Shown in pieces: positions 7,690-54,143 of a stretch of DNA of 64,000 nucleotides. Every line of letters begins with the position of its first letter. The first letter of the stretch is position 1. Source of the DNA: an uncultured Alistipes sp. GTDB lineage: Bacteria; Bacteroidota; Bacteroidia; Bacteroidales; UBA932. The stretch spans positions 45,342 to 109,341 of the forward strand of contig UQUJ01000001.1 of NCBI GenBank assembly GCA_900544195.1, read 5' to 3'. The notes beneath the pieces were generated by a model that worked only from the letters and a program-made list of their open reading frames with translations, was not told where the DNA came from and did no database searches. The translations under genes and the position numbers were made by a program.

Positions 7690-8664
7690 TCAGGACTTGT
7701 CGGAGATGTTGCGGTAGAACTGGATGCGGTCGAAACGTCCGCCCTCCTCGTGGTGTGAGGCGTCAAGACGACCTCGGAACTCGTCCAGAGAGCGGAATTT
7801 GTGGGCTGCCATCCAGTCTGAAAGGCGGCCGGTCATCCTGGAGATGGCCTCAGGGCCTTCCTTGTAGAGAACAGAGCAGATTTCGGCAGCCGTGGCTCCG
7901 GCAAGGAGGATCTTGACAAGGGCGTCCCCGTCCAGGACCCCGCCCGAGGCCAGAATCGCTGATGACGGGGCCTTGGCCGAGGCAAGACCGACCCAACGCA
8001 GGACATCATGGATCTCCTTTCCGTCGCTCAATGGGTCGGCGCTCCTGAACGAAAGGGTGTCCGTGTCGATGTCCACAGGACACATCTTGTTGAACAGAAC
8101 CACGGCGGCGGCACCCTCAAACGTCAGTCTCCGGACAAGCGGGATCACGTTGGTGAACGTGTGGCCGATCTTGACAATGACCGGAATCTCGATCCGGTGC
8201 TTCACGGCCTTGAACATCTCCACGTGCATCCTTTCCAGGTCCCCGTCCACATAGACGGGGTCACTCTCCAGCCTCATCACGTTCAGTTCGACCGCATCGG
8301 CTCCCGCCTCCTCGAACCTCCCGGCGTAGGACACCCAGGCTCCGGCGGTCGCGCAGCACACGCTGGCGATGACCGGAATCGAGCAGAGGGCCTTCGTCCT
8401 GCGGATGATGTCGCAATACTCGTCAAGCCGACGCTCCATCTGGTAGTACCGCAGGTAGTCATAGCCTTCAGTGTGGAAGGAGTGGTCATACCGGTCGATC
8501 TCGGCGAGGATCTCCTCCTCGAAGATGGACTTGATCACAACCGCGCCCGCACCCGCCCTTTCATATTCAAGACACCTTTCCGGCCGCGAGGTAAGTGAGC
8601 AGCTGCCCACTATCACGGGGCTGCGCAGCAGCAGTCCCCCGAATGATGTAGTCATGTTGTTCAT
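7690..8664 (-). CDS. Dihydroorotate dehydrogenase-like protein (class 1 PyrD-family TIM barrel)
   Basis: 324 aa; SPVIVGSCSLTS...GAGAVV.KSI and later GGV.DG.DA.K...AGA resemble the DHODH/dihydropyrimidine-DH catalytic-subunit fold. The exact substrate is not inferable. Confidence 0.55.
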   Translation of the reverse strand: MNNMTTSFGGLLLRSPVIVGSCSLTSRPERCLEYERAGAGAVVIKSIFEEEILAEIDRYDHSFHTEGYDYLRYYQMERRLDEYCDIIRRTKALCSIPVIASVCCATAGAWVSYAGRFEEAGADAVELNVMRLESDPVYVDGDLERMHVEMFKAVKHRIEIPVIVKIGHTFTNVIPLVRRLTFEGAAAVVLFNKMCPVDIDTDTLSFRSADPLSDGKEIHDVLRWVGLASAKAPSSAILASGGVLDGDALVKILLAGATAAEICSVLYKEGPEAISRMTGRLSDWMAAHKFRSLDEFRGRLDASHHEEGGRFDRIQFYRNISDKS

Positions 8665-9089: not shown

Positions 9090-10286
9090 TCATAGCCTCT
9101 GATAAAGAATCACTTCCGAGAGGCTGGCGTGCGGGGCGTTGTTGCTGCCTGTCACCTTCAGCCGGAAATATCTTCCTGTGGCTTTTCCCGGCAGCACCAG
9201 AATACGCATCACCGGAGTCGGACTGTCCGGAAAGTCCATCGCTCCGGCCTCAGTCCACTCAACCTTGTCCTCGCTCATGTCGAATGCGACAGCCTTGGTG
9301 TCCTTGTTGTTCAGACGCCGGGCAAGAAGAATGGCGGAGATGGTCTTGGACTCGCCGAGGTCAACGACTATTGTGTGCGGCATCACCGGTCTGGCACCGT
9401 TATTCCACTCAGAGTGCCAGAAAGTGTTGAAGTTTCCGTCGATGATGCAATGGGCGAATCCATTTGAACCTTCGCCTACCGCTTCCTGTGTGCTGAACGA
9501 GTCTATGGCAAGACTAGCCTGCGGAATTTGTGAATATTCCGACATCAGTCCGGGATTCTCCTCGGTGCCTACCCATTCCTCCCGTGAGACAACATAGTAG
9601 AAAATAGGAAAGACAAAGGTTTCCGGTTCGGATTCGACAAGATCTATGGCGTTTTCCTCAGGCCTGAACACGGAAACCACCGAGAACTCTCCCTTTGAGA
9701 TGAAGTCTTCGATGAGGAGTGTCGGCTCGCTCGCCGACTGTTCGATTGTCTTGACCGAGCCGTCAATGCTGCTGACATATGTCACCTTTACTGAAACACA
9801 GTCGTCTACCGGAACCCATGTGATCGTGGCTCCATCCCTTGAAGGCACGATGGATCTGCATCCGCGTCTGTTCAGGTTGATGCTTTCCTTGTAGGCATCC
9901 CCATAGACCTCTCCAGAGATGGTCTGCGGAAGGGACTCCTTCCCGGACTGGCTATGGGACGTGATGCTGAAAATGTACTTTCCCTCAGGAATGTCAAAGG
10001 TGGCCTCGTGCATCCCGTCTGATGTGGCCTCTATCGGAACGACCACAGGCGCCTCCGCTCCTTGCCAGGTGATTCTACAGGAGTTTATCCTTGGATCCGC
10101 ATTCAGCCTCCACCTCAACCGGATCCGCTTGAATCCGGCATCCGCCTCCAGATCCGCCGGCTTGCCGAGATACGTGTCCTCTCCCATCTTTAGATACTTG
10201 TCGTGAATCTCGTACATGTCGCCACAGGCGGGCAAGAAAAGGGAGATAGCCAGACACGTCACCAAATATTCAAATATTCTTTTCAT
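9090..10286 (-). CDS. PUL-encoded surface lipoprotein with C-terminal F5/8 type C (discoidin-like) domain, DUF5000/DUF5126-like
   Basis: Lipoprotein signal (..LFLPACGD); C-terminal segment HCIIDGNFNTFWHSEW...VVDLGESKTISAILLARR is typical of discoidin carbohydrate-binding domains; position just after SusD in a PUL. Confidence 0.65.
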   Translation of the reverse strand: MKRIFEYLVTCLAISLFLPACGDMYEIHDKYLKMGEDTYLGKPADLEADAGFKRIRLRWRLNADPRINSCRITWQGAEAPVVVPIEATSDGMHEATFDIPEGKYIFSITSHSQSGKESLPQTISGEVYGDAYKESINLNRRGCRSIVPSRDGATITWVPVDDCVSVKVTYVSSIDGSVKTIEQSASEPTLLIEDFISKGEFSVVSVFRPEENAIDLVESEPETFVFPIFYYVVSREEWVGTEENPGLMSEYSQIPQASLAIDSFSTQEAVGEGSNGFAHCIIDGNFNTFWHSEWNNGARPVMPHTIVVDLGESKTISAILLARRLNNKDTKAVAFDMSEDKVEWTEAGAMDFPDSPTPVMRILVLPGKATGRYFRLKVTGSNNAPHASLSEVILYQRL

Positions 10287-24030: not shown

Positions 24031-24100
24031 GAGGATAGATTTCTTTTGGAAGAAGGAGTGTGCCGGTGGCACATGACTGATGAGAAAAGAAATATAGACC
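24031..24100. promoter_or_regulatory. 70-bp dispersed element containing palindrome TGTGCC-GGT-GGCACA (24059-24073), 109 bp upstream of glnA
   Basis: About 88% identical to 52644-52713, which is upstream of another gene; internal 15-bp inverted repeat read directly. Confidence 0.5.
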
Positions 24101-24208
24101 ATAAAGATATACAAATTGTTCAAGTTATTTTTTAATGATTACTTAGAGAATTTGATTACACAATATATAGTTTAAGGAAATACAACACCTTTAACAAATA
24201 GACAAATT

Positions 24209-46104: not shown

Positions 46105-46565
46105 CAAAATGATACTGAATGAGAGAACTTAGGTTGGCCGGGGGTGGCGTGTTTGAGGCACGTGAGGAATATTGTTATTTTACAAATCGCTTTCAGAGTA
46201 ATGTGCCACAGAACAGTGTAGAATGACGATAAGCCTGAAAAAGTCGTGCGATCGGGGGTGAGATATTCATGGCATAGTTGCCTGTGGACGGTTCTGTGGA
46301 CGATCGGCCTGAAGGTGTTTTGCAAAATGAGAGGGATAACTTAGGTTGGCCTGAAGGTGGCGTGTCTGAGGCACGTGAGGAATTCTGTTATTTTACAAAT
46401 CGCTTTCATGGTAATGTGCCATAGAACAGTGTAGAATGACGATAAGCCTGAAAAAGTCGTGCGATCGGGGGTGGGATATTCATGACAAAGTGGCCTGTGG
46501 ACGGTTCTGTGGACGATCGGCCTGAAGGTGTTTTGCAAAATGTAAGGGATAACTCAGGGTTGGCA
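46105..46565. repeat. 212-bp tandem repeat, 2 full copies plus a third-copy stub (~96% identity)
   Basis: Unit AACTTAGGTTGGCC...GGCACGTGAGGAAT...TTTGCAAAATG. Unit starts are at 46127, 46339 and a third-copy stub begins at 46551. The ORFs 46074-46325 and 46341-46538 are merely translations of the two copies. Confidence 0.85.
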
Positions 46566-49207: not shown

Positions 49208-49786
49208 ATGAAAGTCCTTTTCATCCACGGACTTGCGTCCTCCGGAGCCTACAAGATGGCCTCCTCCCTGCGGATTCTCCTGAAGGGGAGCGAGGTCATC
49301 GCTCCAGACGTGCCCATCGAACCCGGCGAGGCTTTGACCCTTCTTGAAGGAATATGCCGGGACGAGCGTCCTGACCTCATTGTCGGCCTGTCCCTTGGCG
49401 GATTCTGGGCACAGAAACTCCGTGGCTACCGCAAGATCCTCGTCAACCCTGACTTCCACATCTCCCGTCTCCTGCGCACGATGACAGGGGTGCGTGAATA
49501 TCTCTCCCCGCGCCGCGACGGAGCGTTGACGTTCACCGTCACCGAAGTGTTGTGCGATGAATATGCCCGTTTGGAAGCCACTGAGTTTGACGGGCTTTCT
49601 CCTGAGGAGATTGCCCTGACAACCGGCATGTTCGCCGACCGTGACGAGATGGTCAACTGCAAGGACGAGTTTGAGGCTTATTATCCAGGTCGGTCGCGTT
49701 CCTACCCTGGAACCCACCTGCCCAATTACCCCGAAATCAAGAAATATATCCTACCTGTAATCGAATATGAAGTATCTGATAAATAA
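49208..49786 (+). CDS. Alpha/beta-hydrolase esterase, YqiA-like
   Basis: 192 aa; VLFIHGLASSG start and nucleophile elbow GLSLGG. Confidence 0.65.
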   Translation: MKVLFIHGLASSGAYKMASSLRILLKGSEVIAPDVPIEPGEALTLLEGICRDERPDLIVGLSLGGFWAQKLRGYRKILVNPDFHISRLLRTMTGVREYLSPRRDGALTFTVTEVLCDEYARLEATEFDGLSPEEIALTTGMFADRDEMVNCKDEFEAYYPGRSRSYPGTHLPNYPEIKKYILPVIEYEVSDK

Positions 49787-50732
49787 CTCCACCGACCCGT
49801 ATTTCAACCTTGCGTTCGATGAATATTGCCTTGAGAACATTCCGTCCGAGGAACCGTACTTCTTCCTCTGGAGGAACCGCCCGGCAGTGATCATAGGCCT
49901 GAACCAGAACGCCTACAGCGAGGTGAATCTGGACTATCTCAATTCGCACGGCATCACGCTGGCCCGTCGTGTGACCGGAGGCGGAGCCGTCTATCACGAT
50001 CTCCAGAACATGAACTACACGATCATCGGCAGGAACCCGTCCCCTCAGCCGATGGTGGACGCTCTGCGCAGCCTTGGCGTACCCGCCGAGCTGACAGGCC
50101 GCAACGACATATTCGTGGAAGGAAGAAAGGTCTCCGGCTACGCCCGCCGCGTCTCCCATAATCAGGAGATCATCCACGGCACGCTGATGTATGACGTTGA
50201 CCTTGACACGCTTACGCACGTGCTGGACACGCAGGGCTCTAAGATGCAGGCCAAGGGTATCTCTTCGGTCAAGAGCCGTGTGGCGAATCTGAAGGAGTAC
50301 CTCCCGCAGTTCAAGTCCCTTGACGAGCTTCAGGCCGCGCTCCAGAAGATCCTTTCCGCAGGTGACGGTCAGATGCCTTTGTCCGCCGAGCAGGTCGCCG
50401 AGGTCCGCAGACAGGCCGACGAGAAGTTCTCCACCTGGGATTTCATCTACGGCCACTCCCACGAAGCCGATTTCCGCTGCAAGGCCAAACTCTCCTGCGG
50501 CACCGTAGAGGCCAACATCCGTGTGGACCGCGGCCTGATCGCCCGTCTGGATTTCTCCGGCGACTTCCTCTTCGACACCCCTGCCCAGGAGCTTGCCGCC
50601 AAGATGACCGGCCTCCGCTACGCCCCTGCTGAAGTAAAGGCTTTCCTGGCCACCCAGCCCGTCTCCACCTACTTCCGCGGCGCCACCCCCGACGACCTCG
50701 CCGCCCTCCTCTTCAAGCCTTCCGCCGAGTAG
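49767..50732 (+). CDS. lplA: Lipoate--protein ligase A
   Basis: BPL/LPL catalytic domain (RR.TGGGAVYHD..N) and C-terminal LplA domain; located near the lipoyl-E2 cluster. Confidence 0.85.
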   Translation: MKYLINNSTDPYFNLAFDEYCLENIPSEEPYFFLWRNRPAVIIGLNQNAYSEVNLDYLNSHGITLARRVTGGGAVYHDLQNMNYTIIGRNPSPQPMVDALRSLGVPAELTGRNDIFVEGRKVSGYARRVSHNQEIIHGTLMYDVDLDTLTHVLDTQGSKMQAKGISSVKSRVANLKEYLPQFKSLDELQAALQKILSAGDGQMPLSAEQVAEVRRQADEKFSTWDFIYGHSHEADFRCKAKLSCGTVEANIRVDRGLIARLDFSGDFLFDTPAQELAAKMTGLRYAPAEVKAFLATQPVSTYFRGATPDDLAALLFKPSAE

Positions 50733-51033
50733 CCGAGTAGCCGCGGAGTCACCGCCACCGCCACCCAGGCTGGCTCTGGACAGGTGTACAAGCGTTGAGC
50801 ATCTTCTCCTCCCTCCGCCGAGTGGCCGTGGAGCCTAAGGTCTTAATAATGAGCGAAATCAATGAACCTTCTCCTACCTCGAAGCGATAGGAGGAGGTTC
50901 TTTTTACTGTCTGATTTTCAATCGAATGCCCTCCACGGCGACATAAATAAAACTCTCAAAACGCTCCTGCCACCCTTCTTTTTAACCTCGACGGCGGCAA
51001 AACCGCTCAATAATGCCGCCGTTCCCCTCCGCA

Positions 51034-51190
51034 CCTTCCTCTCCGGAAACGAATATCCCTCAAAACGTCGCCGCAAGCCCCCTCTGATCCCTCTCCGGAA
51101 ACACAAACCCCTCAAAACGTTGCCGCAGGCCTCCTCTTATCCCTCTCCGGCAACGAATACCCCTCAAAACGTTGCCGCAGGGCGCGGAGG
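51034..51190. repeat. Tandem array of three ~52-bp units (CCCTCTCCGGAAACGAATA.CCCTCAAAACGT.GCCGCA.G...)
   Basis: Three contiguous copies with 80-90% identity, 67 bp upstream of the PNGase F-like gene; a degenerate fourth copy lies at 52515-52545. Confidence 0.8.
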
Positions 51191-51256
51191 GAACAGCGAT
51201 CCGTCAGTGAGACATTTATTTTGATTTTATTTTAAATTGTTTTAATTTAGGGGTCG

Positions 51257-52411
51257 ATGGATAAAACTTATACAGACATGATTATGATGAATCGAATCAC
51301 CGTTGCCTGCGTTGTTTTAGCCGGGTGCGTCACAATGTTTTCAAGCTGCCGAAAAGACAAGATTGAGCCTCCGGTTCCTCTTGACCCCGACAACATTGCT
51401 GTCAGGGAAGACAGGAAGCCGTTCCACAAGTCCGACCCCATGACGGGGAAAACGCCTTCCGCCAAGGTCAGCAGTGACAAATTGAAGCTGCATTTCTTCG
51501 GCTGGGGCGAGGAACAGGACTTCTCCTTCAACCTTATATTCCCGAAGGACAAGGAATATGAAAGGGTCATCATCGCCTATACTATGACAAGTTTCTTCGA
51601 AGGACCAGCTTCCTATGACAACACAACCATGCTTTTTGTGCGCAACAAGACAGACGGTCAATGGTACGAACTTACAAGGGCGTTCACCCCATACGGAAAC
51701 GCGTTCAACAGCAGTTGGAGCAAGACCTTCTGGATAGATGTCTCTGAATATTCCTCCATGCTCTCCGGGGACACGGAGTTCCGGCTGTACTACGGCGGGT
51801 TCGACGCGACCCCGACAAGAAGCCACGCCGTCAGGCTGGACTTCAATCTCTACGAAGGCAAGCCGTCGAAAAAAGTCGTGTGGACATCCAAGGTCTACGA
51901 TTCCAGCCGTGACGGCAATTCCGGCTATAGGGGCTGGTCCTACGGCGTGAAGGGTCATGACATCGAGGACGCTTCCAGATTGGGCAAAAGGGAGTTCACC
52001 CTGCCGCAGGAAGTCAAATCCCTGTTGATGAAAGTGGCCGTGAGCGGCCATGGTCACGATCAGGGAAGATTCATAGAAAGAACGGGTTACGTGACAAGAA
52101 ACGCTGCCGAGTTCGATGAGAACACGTACACCATCGTGATCAACGGAGTCACCCAGAAAAAGACCGGAAGAATCTTCTACAGCAACAAGGACAACTACCC
52201 TCAGGCCGGGACCTATCTCTATGACAGGGCCAACTGGGCTCCCGGAAATCCGCTGAATGTGCATTACTGGACGATTACTCCGCCGGAAAGTTCCCGAAGG
52301 TTGTCTCTGGACCTCAACCTTGAGAAGTTCGAGTCTCAGTTCACCGACCCGAAAGCCGAAGGTTGCGCGCAGTACATAGTCGAAGTCGATCTCTTCGGCC
52401 TCAGCGACTAG
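51257..52411 (+). CDS. Peptide-N4-(N-acetyl-beta-glucosaminyl)asparagine amidase F (PNGase F) homologue, lipoprotein
   Basis: Lipobox MFSSC. Blocks VRNKTDGQWYELTRAFTPY, DVSEYSSMLSGDTEFRLY and VSGHGHD parallel the VKNKTTGEWYEIGRFITPY, DVTDFKSLLSGNTELKIY and ISGWGHA blocks of Elizabethkingia PNGase F as I remember that sequence. Confidence 0.75.
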   Translation: MDKTYTDMIMMNRITVACVVLAGCVTMFSSCRKDKIEPPVPLDPDNIAVREDRKPFHKSDPMTGKTPSAKVSSDKLKLHFFGWGEEQDFSFNLIFPKDKEYERVIIAYTMTSFFEGPASYDNTTMLFVRNKTDGQWYELTRAFTPYGNAFNSSWSKTFWIDVSEYSSMLSGDTEFRLYYGGFDATPTRSHAVRLDFNLYEGKPSKKVVWTSKVYDSSRDGNSGYRGWSYGVKGHDIEDASRLGKREFTLPQEVKSLLMKVAVSGHGHDQGRFIERTGYVTRNAAEFDENTYTIVINGVTQKKTGRIFYSNKDNYPQAGTYLYDRANWAPGNPLNVHYWTITPPESSRRLSLDLNLEKFESQFTDPKAEGCAQYIVEVDLFGLSD

Positions 52412-52643
52412 CGCCCCTCTGCCCGTCGCCGTCCTGCTTCCGTGGCGTCACTGCTGACGACCTCGCACCCTTCCCGTCAAGCCTTCCGCCGAGTAGTCAT
52501 CATCATCGTCCGCGAAACCTCCCGGAAACGCTCCCGTCGCCGTCCAATTGCCCCGTTACGGCTCACCTGCAAGTCTCCGTGTCTGATATGATATAAATCC
52601 AGCCATGGAGGAACATGAAAATATAATTAAGAGAATACTTTCG

Positions 52644-52713
52644 AGGATAGATCTTTTTTCGAAGAAGGAGTGTGCCGGTGGCACATGACAGATGAAAAAA
52701 AAGAGAGATAGAC
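52644..52713. promoter_or_regulatory. Second copy of the 70-bp element with palindrome TGTGCC-GGT-GGCACA (52671-52685)
   Basis: About 88% identical to 24031-24100; 35 bp upstream of the small ORF 52748-52966 and 372 bp upstream of the esterase gene. Confidence 0.5.
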
Positions 52714-53084
52714 CGGAAAGATTCCTTAAGATGATGCAGCTTGTTTTTTGAAGGTTACTAAGGTAGATTCCGTGAAAGGAAGTACCTTTGTAGTCATGGA
52801 TAAGAGCACAGCACAAGCAATGCTCTACGAGCGCTACCTCGGTTTCATTCTTCCCGATGGTATGTTGGATTTTTCGAACTGGTCTGGATGGAGAGATGTT
52901 TCTCACGGCCATGGAGGCGAAGAAGGAAGTTGCGTACACCGGCATACTGCACATACATCTTATTGATGGAGAATTATCTAGGTAGCGCTATGGCCGGCGT
53001 CCGTTTGCGCCCCACCGGTGGCAAAAAGGATTAAAGGCACCGTGCTGACAATTGTGGGTGTTGGAAAAAGGGAAGTGCTTGTAG

Positions 53085-54143
53085 TTGATGCTAAAAATAT
53101 TGAATATGAGGAAAATAGCCTTTTTGATGGCGCTGATGCTGTCCGTGTGTCCGCTCGGCGCCGGGATGTGGGTCTCTGCGCGGGAACTGACTCCGCGCTG
53201 GACTTTGGAATATTCACGGAAAGACACTTCGGCGCTTTTCATGGACATCTACTCTCCGGCGGAGGGGAGCGTGACGGAGATTGACGGCCGCAGGAAGCCG
53301 ACGATCCTCTATGTGTTCGGAGGCGGGTTCATGGAAGGGAACAGGCGTGACGGGACGGCTATGGAGTGGTTCCGGGATCTGACCGATGATGGCTATGGGG
53401 TGGTGGCGATTGACTACCGCCTTGGCTTGAAGGGGGTCAGGGGCGTTACCGCCTCGGAGTTCGTCGTGCTGTTGGAAAGGGCTATAAACCTTGCGGTTGA
53501 GGATCTGTTCAGCGCGACATCCTATCTGATCGAGCATCAGGATGAGCTGGGCATAGATCCGTCCGCCCTTGTGGTCGCGGGATCCTCCGCCGGTGCGATA
53601 ACCGCGTTGCAGGCTGAATATGAGATCTGTAACGGAACGCCCGTCGCGTCGGTGCTGCCGGAGGGCTTCAACTATGCCGGCGTGATGTCCTTCGCCGGAG
53701 CGCTGCTTGTCAAAGGAGGTGCTATTGAATATTCCCGAAAACCTTGTCCGACACTTTTGATGCACGGCACGAAGGATGACATCGTGCCTTATGAGGTTAC
53801 CAGTTACGGCGGCTACTCGTTCCGTGGCTCGTCAGCCCTGGCCAAGGCGTTGTCTGACAACGGTTATGACTATCGCATCTACCGGTACCTTGGCAACAAT
53901 CACACTGTCGCCGGCTTTATGCATTTCACTCTGGACATAGAAAGAGATTTCTTGGAGCGTAACGTGATGCAGGCTGTCCGTCTGAACGTTGACGCTCTGA
54001 TAGAAGACCCGTCCCTGCCATATTACCCCTCAGGTAACAGCAATCTTTACGACATCAAGACCGATAGGGCAGGCTCAGCGACCAAAAGGGGCGCTCCTTT
54101 AGTCTCAGGTAACAGCAATCTTTACGACATCAAGACCGATTGA
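53085..54143 (+). CDS. Secreted alpha/beta-hydrolase carboxylesterase/lipase
   Basis: Signal peptide; oxyanion-hole region YVFGGGFMEG; nucleophile elbow GSSAG; the C-terminus carries a 69-bp tandem duplication (SGNSNLYDIKTD twice). Confidence 0.75.
   Translation: MMLKILNMRKIAFLMALMLSVCPLGAGMWVSARELTPRWTLEYSRKDTSALFMDIYSPAEGSVTEIDGRRKPTILYVFGGGFMEGNRRDGTAMEWFRDLTDDGYGVVAIDYRLGLKGVRGVTASEFVVLLERAINLAVEDLFSATSYLIEHQDELGIDPSALVVAGSSAGAITALQAEYEICNGTPVASVLPEGFNYAGVMSFAGALLVKGGAIEYSRKPCPTLLMHGTKDDIVPYEVTSYGGYSFRGSSALAKALSDNGYDYRIYRYLGNNHTVAGFMHFTLDIERDFLERNVMQAVRLNVDALIEDPSLPYYPSGNSNLYDIKTDRAGSATKRGAPLVSGNSNLYDIKTD

Follow-up and report, generated by a model that had tools for sequence, protein, structure and literature searches.

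The PNGase F-like gene described here, from a species complex of uncultured Bacteroidales of the human gut, is best explained as lying in a recombination hotspot at a synteny break directly 3′ of lplA. The copy of the lplA 3′ end that follows the gene is, with a probability that we put at roughly 0.6, a scar of homology-anchored, illegitimate or unequal recombination in this VNTR-like hotspot, formed without a dedicated integrase. The 85-nt copy would then be the old 3′ end of an lplA allele, displaced together with its own downstream sequence and by now in decay. The ~1.76-kb segment placed between the lplA body and that old tail would comprise a replacement lplA tail and a second lplA-downstream type carrying a 52-bp repeat, a leader and the PNGase gene. 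Positions refer to the window, the whole 64-kb stretch of DNA that was analysed, and L numbers denote the loci compared with it.

Results

The features of the locus are listed below, with tails, relics and segments lettered as in the text.

49500..49680, no strand: ancestry breakpoint, from the identity of the window to L005 and L002
49767..50732, + strand: lplA, intact, lipoate-protein ligase of 321 aa (Pfam LplA-B_cat 1.4e-57, Lip_prot_lig_C 1e-16)
about 50648..50732, + strand: tail a, left repeat copy, the functional 85-nt end of lplA
50724..50743, + strand: 8-bp tandem duplication GCCGAGTA, 2.5 copies, across the lplA stop codon
50733..50825, + strand: spacer b, with the third lplA-tail relic at its end
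50826..51037, + strand: segment c, orthologous to the sequence directly 3′ of the lplA stop in L006, L062, L074 and L007
51038..51181, + strand: 52-bp tandem repeat, 2.8 copies in the window
51182..51256, + strand: AT-rich leader d, 5′ of the PNGase gene
51257..52411, + strand: gene of the PNGase F-like lipoprotein (384 aa), whose predicted signal peptide ends in FSSC
about 52412..52496, + strand: relic e, a decaying lplA 3′-end fragment and right copy of the repeat
52422..52545, + strand: 111-bp unit, covering most of relic e and a further 36 nt
52497..52700, + strand: segment f, its first ~55 nt orthologous to the sequence after the lplA stop of L001, L002, L005, L010 and L068
53127..54143, + strand: esterase (BD-FAE / alpha-beta hydrolase)

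The first-pass annotation of this DNA had described a direct repeat of the lplA 3′ end after a PNGase-like gene, and all of its elements were recovered in place, including the further duplication at the end of lplA, which is the 8-bp GCCGAGTA. The identity of lplA itself was supported by NCBIfam TIGR00545 (337.7 bits; cutoff 280). The repeat had been given as 42 bp; it is real, but the homology is longer, covering about 85 nt with 68/85 identities (80%) and 2 gaps (E 4e-15 in a search against the whole window). Relic e starts 1-2 nt past the PNGase stop codon (TAG, 52409-52411). The final 20 nt of tail a and relic e are identical and the remainder is ~75% alike, a pattern that resembles a crossover core or local gene conversion. 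This 20-mer, TCAAGCCTTCCGCCGAGTAG, occurs at exactly two sites in 64 kb, 50713-50732 and 52477-52496, and 0 of 100 shuffles contained even a single match. Tail a and relic e are separated by 16 substitutions and 2 indels. The majority state is retained by e at 5 of the 16 substitutions, and another 8 occur in e alone, at invariant or nearly invariant sites where 18-22 of 22 functional lplA genes agree. By these substitutions and the 2 indels, relic e is a decaying pseudogene fragment and not a copy of the present tail; CFRGVTADDLAPF is still readable in its frame 2 (..FRGVTADDLA..). Identity to the tails of f-type species is 80-91% for a and 66-81% for e. Likeness to f-type or c-type species was also tried as a means of picking the native tail and was indecisive once the private decay of e was allowed for.

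A third lplA-tail relic lies at 50803-50825 (CTTCTCCTCCCTCCGCCGAGTGG), which is its robust part, with a possible extension back to 50759. In other strains zone b is a tandem array of ~55-65 nt modules, each made of the last ~30 nt of lplA and ~25 nt of downstream sequence. The window has 3 tail relics and other strains have as many as 6, and the left ends of the relics fall at about -8, -18, -31/-34, -75 and -85, and at about -22 and -53 in L003 and L004. The DNA between the two tail copies had been described as a tandem array and a single gene. The gene count held, since 51257-52411 is the sole long ORF with a family match and the remaining ORFs of at least 60 aa overlap the PNGase gene or repeats (ORF 50862-51224 had no Pfam match); the third relic and the stretch at 50826-51181, which is orthologous to the sequence immediately 3′ of lplA in other species, had been missed.

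Segment c contains two hairpins, one followed by a U-run (50868-50905) and a strong one (-17.3 kcal/mol, z -4.7) at 50990-51023. No known RNA family was found in 50500-53200 at E up to 1, and a sigma-70 promoter and terminator scan, with a tool not built for Bacteroidetes promoters, gave nothing above shuffle expectation. The relic e region (52412-52560) is no more stably folded than its shuffles (z +1.0), unlike an integron-type attC, an imperfect palindrome that forms a stable single-stranded hairpin. Self-comparison of the window revealed no inverted repeats at the repeat boundaries. The first-pass annotation had reported that no integrase is present, and this was confirmed with Pfam: no recombinase, integrase, transposase or resolvase domain was found in any ORF of at least 180 aa of the 64-kb window, and the window contains no tRNA.

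The assignment of the gene as PNGase F-like was borne out by sequence matches to PDB chains, Pfam and catalytic residues. A phmmer search of the PDB matched 1pnf, 1pgs and 3pms (E about 2e-17; query 74-334, chain 13-258), the homology to PNGase F spanning both beta-sandwich domains. Pfam N-glycanase_C gave a weak match (26.9 bits; cutoff 25) and an NCBIfam search with the protein gave no match. D121 and E285 align with the catalytic D60 and E206 of PNGase F and are invariant in 114/114 homologues, and the position equivalent to E118 is Gly in 108/114. [quoted passage not shown] Like the Bacteroides PNGases of group 1 (type I) and group 2 (type II), the window protein is a PNGase F homologue with D60/E206 equivalents, and several of the group 2 genes are reported as orphan single genes, as is the case here (PMC9522356). 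[quoted passage not shown]

A test of the gene for deviating GC content and codon usage had been suggested. GC was 52.1% (z -1.5), but neither GC3 (z -0.4) nor synonymous codon usage (z -0.3) was unusual, and composition was uninformative as to foreignness. Homologues of 75-83% identity occur in three other genomic contexts, where homology ends at the gene borders and no lplA-tail-like flanks are present; tail duplications flanking the homologues were likewise absent from L089, L093 and L094, L089 having only a 37-bp tandem duplication of the tail of the upstream abhydrolase gene. Gene-tail tandem duplication was thus observed for genes other than lplA, in this abhydrolase and in the esterase of the window, where 36 nt are duplicated (54030-54065 and 54105-54140). 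A search for further cassettes with the same flank had been proposed, and none was found by an 18-mer scan of metagenome contigs: every match homologous to the window was the same locus, and the remaining matches lacked homology.

Comparison with related species identified the sites without the gene. L001, L002, L005, L010 and L068 each have a single lplA tail, no PNGase gene and then f-like sequence, as the proposed empty-site check had foreseen, with the esterase gene next in L005 and L068. The esterase is the gene directly 3′ of lplA in L005, L008, L063 and L068. Relic e with segment f is colinear with the lplA tail and downstream sequence of these five single-tail species that lack PNGase; hence empty sites exist and the window holds ~1.76 kb extra. 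The third relic with segment c is colinear instead with the lplA tail and downstream sequence of L006, L062, L074 and L007, so that two alternative lplA-downstream haplotypes, each headed by a tail, are stacked in the window. An orthologue of c also lies directly 3′ of the lplA stop in L003 and L004. Segments c and f are themselves partly homologous, as window 50949-51020 matches L005 6986-7058, overlapping the f-like stretch of L005. The esterase to the right of the relic is not sister-like to that of L005 either (76% nt), and e and f are for this reason not firmly assignable to the recipient. The arrangement expected of a donor (lplA, c, tandem repeat and PNGase gene, with no relic e behind) was absent from all 78 related species loci, and no related species was found to keep both a c-type and an f-type unit. 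L087, considered as a candidate donor arrangement, is more readily accounted for by loss of the 111-bp unit from this same locus, with a right flank like that of L002. Tail relics are also present in L003 and L004, species without PNGase, with no gene between them, and L004 has a simple tandem tail duplication.

Within the species of the window every contig that reaches far enough carries the PNGase gene, and exact-protein look-ups of lplA and esterase gave no empty site. Because all of these contigs keep the gene, no excision product was seen. Presence of the gene and the same duplication in all related genomes, with no empty site in any, had been named as the result that would speak against an insertion; the far-reaching contigs of the species do all carry it, but related species supply the empty sites.

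Ancestry of the DNA was compared along the locus. Left of the breakpoint at 49500-49680 the window shares 94-97% identity with L005 and L002, and right of it 81-92%, with L005 and L002 still 92-98% identical to each other through lplA. Maximum chi-square placed the breakpoint at about 49520-49670 (39-52; 0/1000 permutations). It is visible only when the window is compared with the L005/L002 pair, which was checked to stay mutually close. Simple sliding identity had suggested a breakpoint within lplA, which was discarded as all species fall to ~80% in the C-terminal half and the signal is not lineage-specific; an affinity of the window to L003 and L004 was apparent only and not robust. The ancestry thus changes upstream of or in lplA, as a scar of homology-facilitated illegitimate recombination (HFIR) requires, the donor lineage being unsampled.

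The PNGase gene is 98.5-100% identical among strains, and the HAD, abh, lplA and esterase genes of those strains are 81-97% identical to those of the window, neighbours differing by up to 10-16%. Since the gene is far less diverse than its flanks, these values point to recent horizontal spread, and the earlier proposal of horizontal acquisition agrees with this signature. L080 has in common with the window a high-identity tract that extends from about 51150 to 53600, and the tract shared between lineages is therefore not bounded by the tails. DNA homology to PNGase loci elsewhere starts at 51216, within leader d.

Strains differ extensively in this spacer, although the comparison sequences are mostly short-read metagenome assemblies in which repeat copy numbers may be mis-assembled. 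The 52-bp unit is present in 2.8 copies in the window and about 2 to 9 in other strains, a ~490-bp unit in 1 to 3 copies, a 222-bp unit (52479-52700, overlapping segment f and duplicated in many strains) in 1 to 2 copies, and the ~55-65 nt modules in 0 to 2 extra copies. The 111-bp unit is absent from L087 and L122, and it occurs once in the window and three times in L080 and L142. Tandem copy number therefore varies among strains of one species, as it does in VNTR or minisatellite loci. One strand is C-rich (GC skew down to -0.35), a bias that may favour slippage in the spacer. The variants join at 8-13-nt microhomologies. A 5′-truncated PNGase gene arose at GCCTTCCGCC (10 nt; 51454-51463 in the PNGase gene), which is common to the tail relic and PNGase codons, and a second deletion at GCCGCAGG (8 nt; 52003-52010 in the PNGase gene), common to the tandem repeat and the PNGase gene. 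Loss and gain of the 111-bp unit is mediated by the 13-mer CCCGTCGCCGTCC, which bounds it at 52422-52434 and 52533-52545. The duplication junction of the f unit has only AAG in common.

Discussion

The anatomy of the locus, the orthology of its blocks, the empty sites, the decay of the relic, the differences between strains, the microhomology junctions and the lack of a recombinase in the window are observations, from which we infer in what order the events took place and by which precise route the DNA recombined. The likeliest route would use a homology anchor in or upstream of lplA, the opposite end being joined illegitimately or out of register, that is, HFIR, or a topologically equivalent Campbell-type or unequal crossover through the tail. 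Such an event would leave lplA intact and shift the old tail downstream, with no need of a dedicated integrase. In keeping with HFIR, a displaced lplA 3′-end fragment with its native downstream sequence was found directly 3′ of the inserted DNA. Weighing against the scar are the lack of a donor arrangement among the 78 loci, the esterase that keeps e and f from a firm assignment, the identical final 20 nt of the two copies, a PNGase/relic junction (between 52399 and 52412) that has no clear microhomology with lplA around 50648, and the predominance of short-read assemblies in the comparison. The tract containing PNGase would later have spread among diverged lineages by ordinary homologous recombination, and slippage or unequal crossing-over at short repeats would continue to alter the spacer, changes that have already truncated the PNGase gene in some strains, one truncated allele being of 309 aa. 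Bacteroidales are not known to be naturally transformable, and conjugation would for this reason be the likelier entry route for the incoming DNA.

The closest competitor to the recombination scar, to which we give something like one chance in four, is an old intragenomic duplication. 

It is a possible though distinctly less probable account: in the genus ancestor the lplA tail and downstream spacer would have been doubled by short-repeat slippage, for example at CCCGTCGCC, found at -75 and +37 of f-type species, the copies would have diverged into c and f, PNGase would have been inserted between them independently, and related species would have lost one unit by tail-by-tail deletion. The 0-3 copies of the 111-bp unit, exchanged through its 13-nt flanking repeats, the partial homology of c and f and the simple tandem tail duplication of L004 are all in keeping with it. 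Relative to e, tail a is also derived at 5 sites, from which it follows that the two split long ago. An older tandem duplication with differential loss gives the same topology as the recombination scar, and this counts against the latter. However, several independent losses would be required, with no related species keeping both units, and the homology of e to lplA runs ~10 nt past the unit boundary, to the PNGase stop codon. Duplication also offers no explanation of why ancestry switches at about 49520, and a separate, unexplained insertion of PNGase is still required.

The first-pass annotation had favoured site-specific insertion of a minimal cassette with attL/attR-like ends, which did not hold up and is now considered improbable. 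Here the lplA tail would be attB and the 1.7-kb PNGase segment an integrase-less cassette or decayed integrative element between attL and attR, moved by a recombinase encoded elsewhere or since lost. Direct repeats do bracket the segment, the left copy regenerating the lplA 3′ end; single-copy empty sites occur in related species, an identical 20-nt block ends both copies, and the PNGase gene is much less diverse than its flanks. Against this, neither a recombinase domain (ORFs of at least 180 aa) nor a tRNA is present in the 64 kb, the copies are 80% alike with no clean core, and relic boundaries vary among events, the identical 20-nt block not being their boundary. Several relics are present, those of L003 and L004 enclose no gene at all, and strain variants join at microhomologies. 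The metagenome-wide 18-mer scan yielded no other tail-flanked cassette, and such flanks are missing around the PNGase homologues of three other contexts, where homology stops at the gene borders. The tract shared between lineages is not delimited by tails, relic e is without significant secondary structure (z +1.0), and no excision product accompanies the far-reaching contigs of the species, which all keep the gene.

A related and very improbable idea is that the lplA tail, and in particular its conserved block AAGCCTTCCGCCGAGTAG at the head of nearly all repeat units, acts as a true recombination site used in trans by a recombinase encoded elsewhere in the genome. The lplA 3′ end would then be an integrase-less gene-capture site of uncultured gut Bacteroidales and the stacked relics successive att scars, by analogy with Xer-exploiting elements or attC clusters that lack an integrase. 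Least credible of all is an assembly artefact, in which mis-joined repeats produced the duplicated tail: contigs L079, L085, L102 and L104 do break or carry N runs inside the spacer, but the order of tail a, PNGase and relic e recurs in dozens of independent assemblies from various samples and assemblers, one of them with an 11.7-kb stretch 99.9% identical to the window, and the copies differ at 17 positions, so that an assembler could not have collapsed or swapped them.

The recombination scar has its nearest parallel in HFIR or 'C-terminal displacement' arrays, such as rhs loci and the Vibrio cholerae T6SS effector-immunity arrays, in which a conserved 5′ region anchors incoming DNA and the resident 3′ end is kept downstream as an orphan stub (PMC5361080). 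Stacked orphan 3′ ends in T6SS and rhs loci have been attributed to HFIR (PMC5361080); repeated events stack the stubs with no integrase needed, and the window likewise has three stacked lplA tails and an upstream ancestry switch. In contrast to those arrays, the anchor here is a housekeeping ligase in place of a polymorphic toxin, the displaced stubs are non-functional and short, at 23-85 nt, and the payload is a single gene for a predicted glycan-degrading enzyme. Integrative elements and genomic islands, which target and restore the 3′ ends of genes or tRNAs and are flanked by attL/attR direct repeats, share the topology of an intact gene, an insert and a 3′-end direct repeat, with an empty site in relatives. 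The window departs from them in having no integrase, repeats that are 80% alike with one decaying, boundaries that vary between events, and an insert of 1.7 kb with one gene for which neither excision nor alternative cargo was observed. Bacterial VNTR or minisatellite loci, shaped by slipped-strand mispairing and unequal crossing-over, also have strain-variable units (here 8, ~55-65, 52, 111, 222 and ~490 bp) and junctions at short direct repeats, whereas the present array is seeded on a coding 3′ end, contains a complete gene, and has nested, heterogeneous unit sizes with no single periodic array. The locus is a fresh instance of known recombination phenomena and opens no new class of mechanism.

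The locus serves as a cautionary case, in that a gene bracketed by a repeat that regenerates a 3′ end mimics attL/attR when homologous, illegitimate or unequal recombination is the likelier cause here. The readings can be separated by population data, namely the number and boundaries of relics, microhomology at junctions and the edges of shared tracts. Being hypervariable and VNTR-like, and belonging to a prevalent species complex of uncultured human-gut Bacteroidales, the locus could serve for strain typing. The PNGase F-like gene has spread recently among lineages about 10% apart and is already truncated in part of the population, and the combination of recent spread and partial truncation hints at fluctuating selection on N-glycan harvesting.

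The lplA 3′ end recurs behind a PNGase F-like gene

The lplA product is a bona fide lipoate-protein ligase as judged by its profile matches (Pfam LplA-B_cat 1.4e-57; TIGR00545 337.7 bits). The features behind it are as follows.

49767-50732, + strand: lplA, lipoate-protein ligase
50648-50732: a, functional last 85 nt of lplA
50733-50825: b, spacer
50803-50825: third tail relic
50826-51037: c
51038-51181: tandem repeat
51182-51256: leader
51257-52411: PNGase F-like gene, 384-aa product, matching solved PNGase F structures
52412-52496: e, relic copy of the tail
52497-52700: f

The final 20 nt of lplA, TCAAGCCTTCCGCCGAGTAG, have a single other exact occurrence in the window, at 52477-52496, and shuffled sequence gave no match. 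In a search against the whole window, 50649-50732 aligned to 52413-52496 with 68/85 identities and 2 gaps (E 4e-15); the direct repeat reported in the first-pass annotation is thus real and about twice the length described. Its 8-bp duplication (50724-50743) and its tandem-repeat array, a 52-bp repeat at 51038-51181, were also found. The downstream copy begins directly 3′ of the stop codon of the 51257-52411 ORF and is still readable in one frame (..CFRGVTADDLAPF..). Relative to a, e carries 16 substitutions and two indels; at five of the 16 e retains the majority state, and eight are private to e at sites invariant or nearly so (18-22/22) in functional lplA genes. By these differences e is an old lplA fragment in decay and not a newly made target-site duplication. 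The 20-nt block identical in a and e may stem from gene conversion or mark a preferred region for crossover. GC skew across the lplA tail and repeat spacer (50500-51250) is -0.23 to -0.35, the + strand being C-rich, and this strong asymmetry may be linked to spacer instability.

The 384-aa product matches 1pnf, 1pgs and 3pms over both domains (E about 2e-17), and across 114 homologues the residues corresponding to D60, E206, R248 and W251 never vary. The equivalent of PNGase F E118 is Gly (G180), as in 108/114 family members, a residue tied to type II / group 2 PNGases accepting core alpha-1,3-fucose (plant/insect N-glycans) by Crouch et al. (2022, PMC9522356), who also report that certain PNGase genes of Bacteroides stand alone as orphans. 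The N-terminus (...FSSC) looks like a lipoprotein signal peptide. Codon usage of 51257-52411, proposed earlier as a check on foreign origin, showed no notable deviation, and GC3 is equally unremarkable. The nearest homologues outside this complex (83% and 75% amino-acid identity) lie in three unrelated contexts, none with tail-like flanks, and DNA homology with them is confined to 51216-52399. At L089, a locus in another genome with an 83%-identical homologue, the last 27 nt of the upstream abhydrolase gene plus 10 nt are tandemly duplicated (7787-7860; 37 bp, 97% identical), and 9151-9471, downstream of the homologue, is packed with tandem repeats, of 24 nt and of 78 nt, around a GCCGGTCGGAGCCGGC hairpin.

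The window holds a stack of three tail-plus-downstream units

Upstream of the locus lie genes for 2-oxoacid dehydrogenase E2, E3 and E1, an alcohol dehydrogenase, an MFS transporter, a HAD hydrolase and a small alpha/beta hydrolase (abh); downstream are an esterase, a GH9-deacetylase fusion, a ROK kinase, an MFS transporter, an SIS protein and SusC. The order MFS-HAD-abh-lplA is mostly or fully kept in 26 related uncultured Bacteroidales species (roughly 82-93% nucleotide identity to the window in the conserved upstream block). In nearly all of these, colinearity with the window is lost no more than a few bases from the lplA stop codon, and the sequence behind lplA varies from species to species, with the PNGase gene at that position in 0/78 loci. 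A 213-bp tandem repeat (46126-46564; 2.1 copies, 92% matches) lies in the intergenic sequence just past the MFS gene 3′ end, and in many strains extra sequence adjoining it includes a RhuM-family gene.

Alignment of lplA tails plus 60 nt downstream across species was decisive for the nature of the repeat copies, and three such units are stacked in the window. The functional tail a is followed by the truncated spacer b. The third relic, c and the 52-bp repeat are colinear with the tail and downstream sequence of loci L006, L062, L074 and L007, and L003 and L004 match as well. The PNGase gene stands at the end of this middle unit. Finally, e and f are colinear with the functional tail and downstream sequence of L001, L002, L005, L010 and L068, and in L005 and L068 the esterase gene comes next. 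Tail relics (22 nt; 53 plus 14 nt) with nothing in between are also found in L003 and L004, which have no PNGase gene.

The window's esterase gene likewise has its final 36 nt, TCAGGTAACAGCAATCTTTACGACATCAAGACCGAT, in two copies (54030-54065 and 54105-54140, 75 nt apart); a stop codon follows the second copy, and the tandem duplication extends the ORF. A dispersed element of about 80-135 nt with hairpin TGTGCCGGTGGCACA occurs at 52626-52759, in the PNGase-esterase spacer, and at 24031-24108, ~100 nt upstream of a type III glutamine synthetase gene (86% identity). Strains L082, L097, L143 and L136 have it between abh and lplA, and it also occurs in the distant species L039, L040 and L043. The spacer copy had no Rfam match; the element could be a small mobile or regulatory one.

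The spacer is hypervariable among strains

An identical PNGase protein was found in 68 blocks of the assembly collection, mostly from human-gut samples. The empty site sought earlier exists in part: the PNGase segment is an insertion relative to related species, but within the species every contig with an identical lplA or esterase protein that extends far enough carries the gene. The lplA-esterase spacer is hypervariable, and the lplA terminal 13-mer occurs up to six times within it.

Variable units of the spacer (copy numbers come from short-read assemblies and are provisional until long reads)
last 34 nt of lplA + b + c + tandem repeat: ~490 bp, 1-3 copies
tandem repeat: 52 bp, ~2-9 copies
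most of e + 36 nt: 111 bp, 0-3 copies
last 18 nt of e + f: 222 bp, 1-2 copies
last ~30 nt of lplA + ~25 nt downstream: ~55-65 nt, extra copies in some strains

Variant junctions fall at short repeats. The 10-mer GCCTTCCGCC, common to a tail relic and PNGase codons, joins 50717-50726 to 51454-51463 (window equivalents), a deletion that took out c, the tandem repeat and the leader together with the PNGase gene's first 197 nt. The resulting allele (L113, L116, L119, L120, L145), 5′-truncated and lacking promoter, signal peptide and those 197 nt, is widespread; since its 309-aa cluster has 660 member sequences, PNGase function may be lost in much of the population. The 8-mer GCCGCAGG, common to the tandem repeat and the PNGase gene, produced another deletion, the 111-bp unit is gained and lost through the 13-mer CCCGTCGCCGTCC, and the 222-bp duplication junction has only AAG in common. 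Relic left boundaries accordingly range from about -8 to -85.

Recombination and the proposed origin of the locus

Strains that share only 81-97% identity with the window in their HAD, abh, lplA and esterase genes have PNGase genes 98.5-100% identical to one another, and these lineages are as distant from each other as from PNGase-less L002 and L005. The gene therefore coalesces much more recently than its flanks, an indication of recent spread across lineages. Strain L080 shares a high-identity tract from about 51150, past c, to about 53600, within the esterase gene, a pattern expected of homologous recombination and not of a tail-bounded unit. To the right of the esterase gene, L080 lacks the window's GH9 / ROK / MFS / SIS / SusC genes and has the genus-typical flank (328-aa and 615-aa minus-strand ORFs, with SPOR and peptidase M28 genes beyond them), which makes the entire polysaccharide-utilisation cluster another presence/absence variant at the hotspot. 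Against L005 and L002 the window is 94-97% identical leftward to about 49520, then 81-92%, where those two are 92-98% alike. The sharp switch (~49520-49670; maximum chi-square 39-52, 0/1000 permutations) falls in the 3′ third of the gene for a 192-aa hydrolase that immediately precedes lplA. Since identity to both drops while that pair stays close, the lplA region differs in ancestry from the left flank. Strain L084 breaks at nearly the same place, being 83-95% identical to the window on the upstream side and 100% on the downstream side.

A somewhat unlikely history for this arrangement is that an older tandem duplication was followed by differential loss, the PNGase gene having been inserted separately. 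Site-specific integration of the PNGase segment at the lplA tail is quite improbable: the 64 kb contain no tRNA and no recombinase or transposase domain in any ORF of at least 180 aa, relic boundaries are variable, e has no attC-like structure, and neither alternative cargo flanked by the tail nor excision products were found. Horizontal acquisition as first proposed thus stands as an insertion relative to relatives with recent spread, but not as a minimal attL/attR-like cassette. Assembly artefact is effectively excluded, the arrangement recurring in dozens of independent assemblies.

The best-supported account is that the locus is a recombination scar. Donor DNA bearing an lplA tail, c-type spacer and PNGase gene would have joined a chromosome with an f-type tail and spacer, one side anchored by homology in or upstream of lplA and the other joined illegitimately or out of register. 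The route may have been homology-facilitated illegitimate recombination or a Campbell-type or unequal crossover through the tail, with the same topology; either would leave lplA intact and the old tail displaced. Such a donor arrangement was not found, and the PNGase/e junction has no clear microhomology. The tract would later have spread by homologous recombination, the spacer still being remodelled by slippage. The same logic has been put forward for orphan 3′ ends that are stacked at rhs and T6SS loci (PMC5361080), and the lplA locus is proposed to follow it; it is a further instance of an already known type of recombination scar, within a VNTR-like hotspot.
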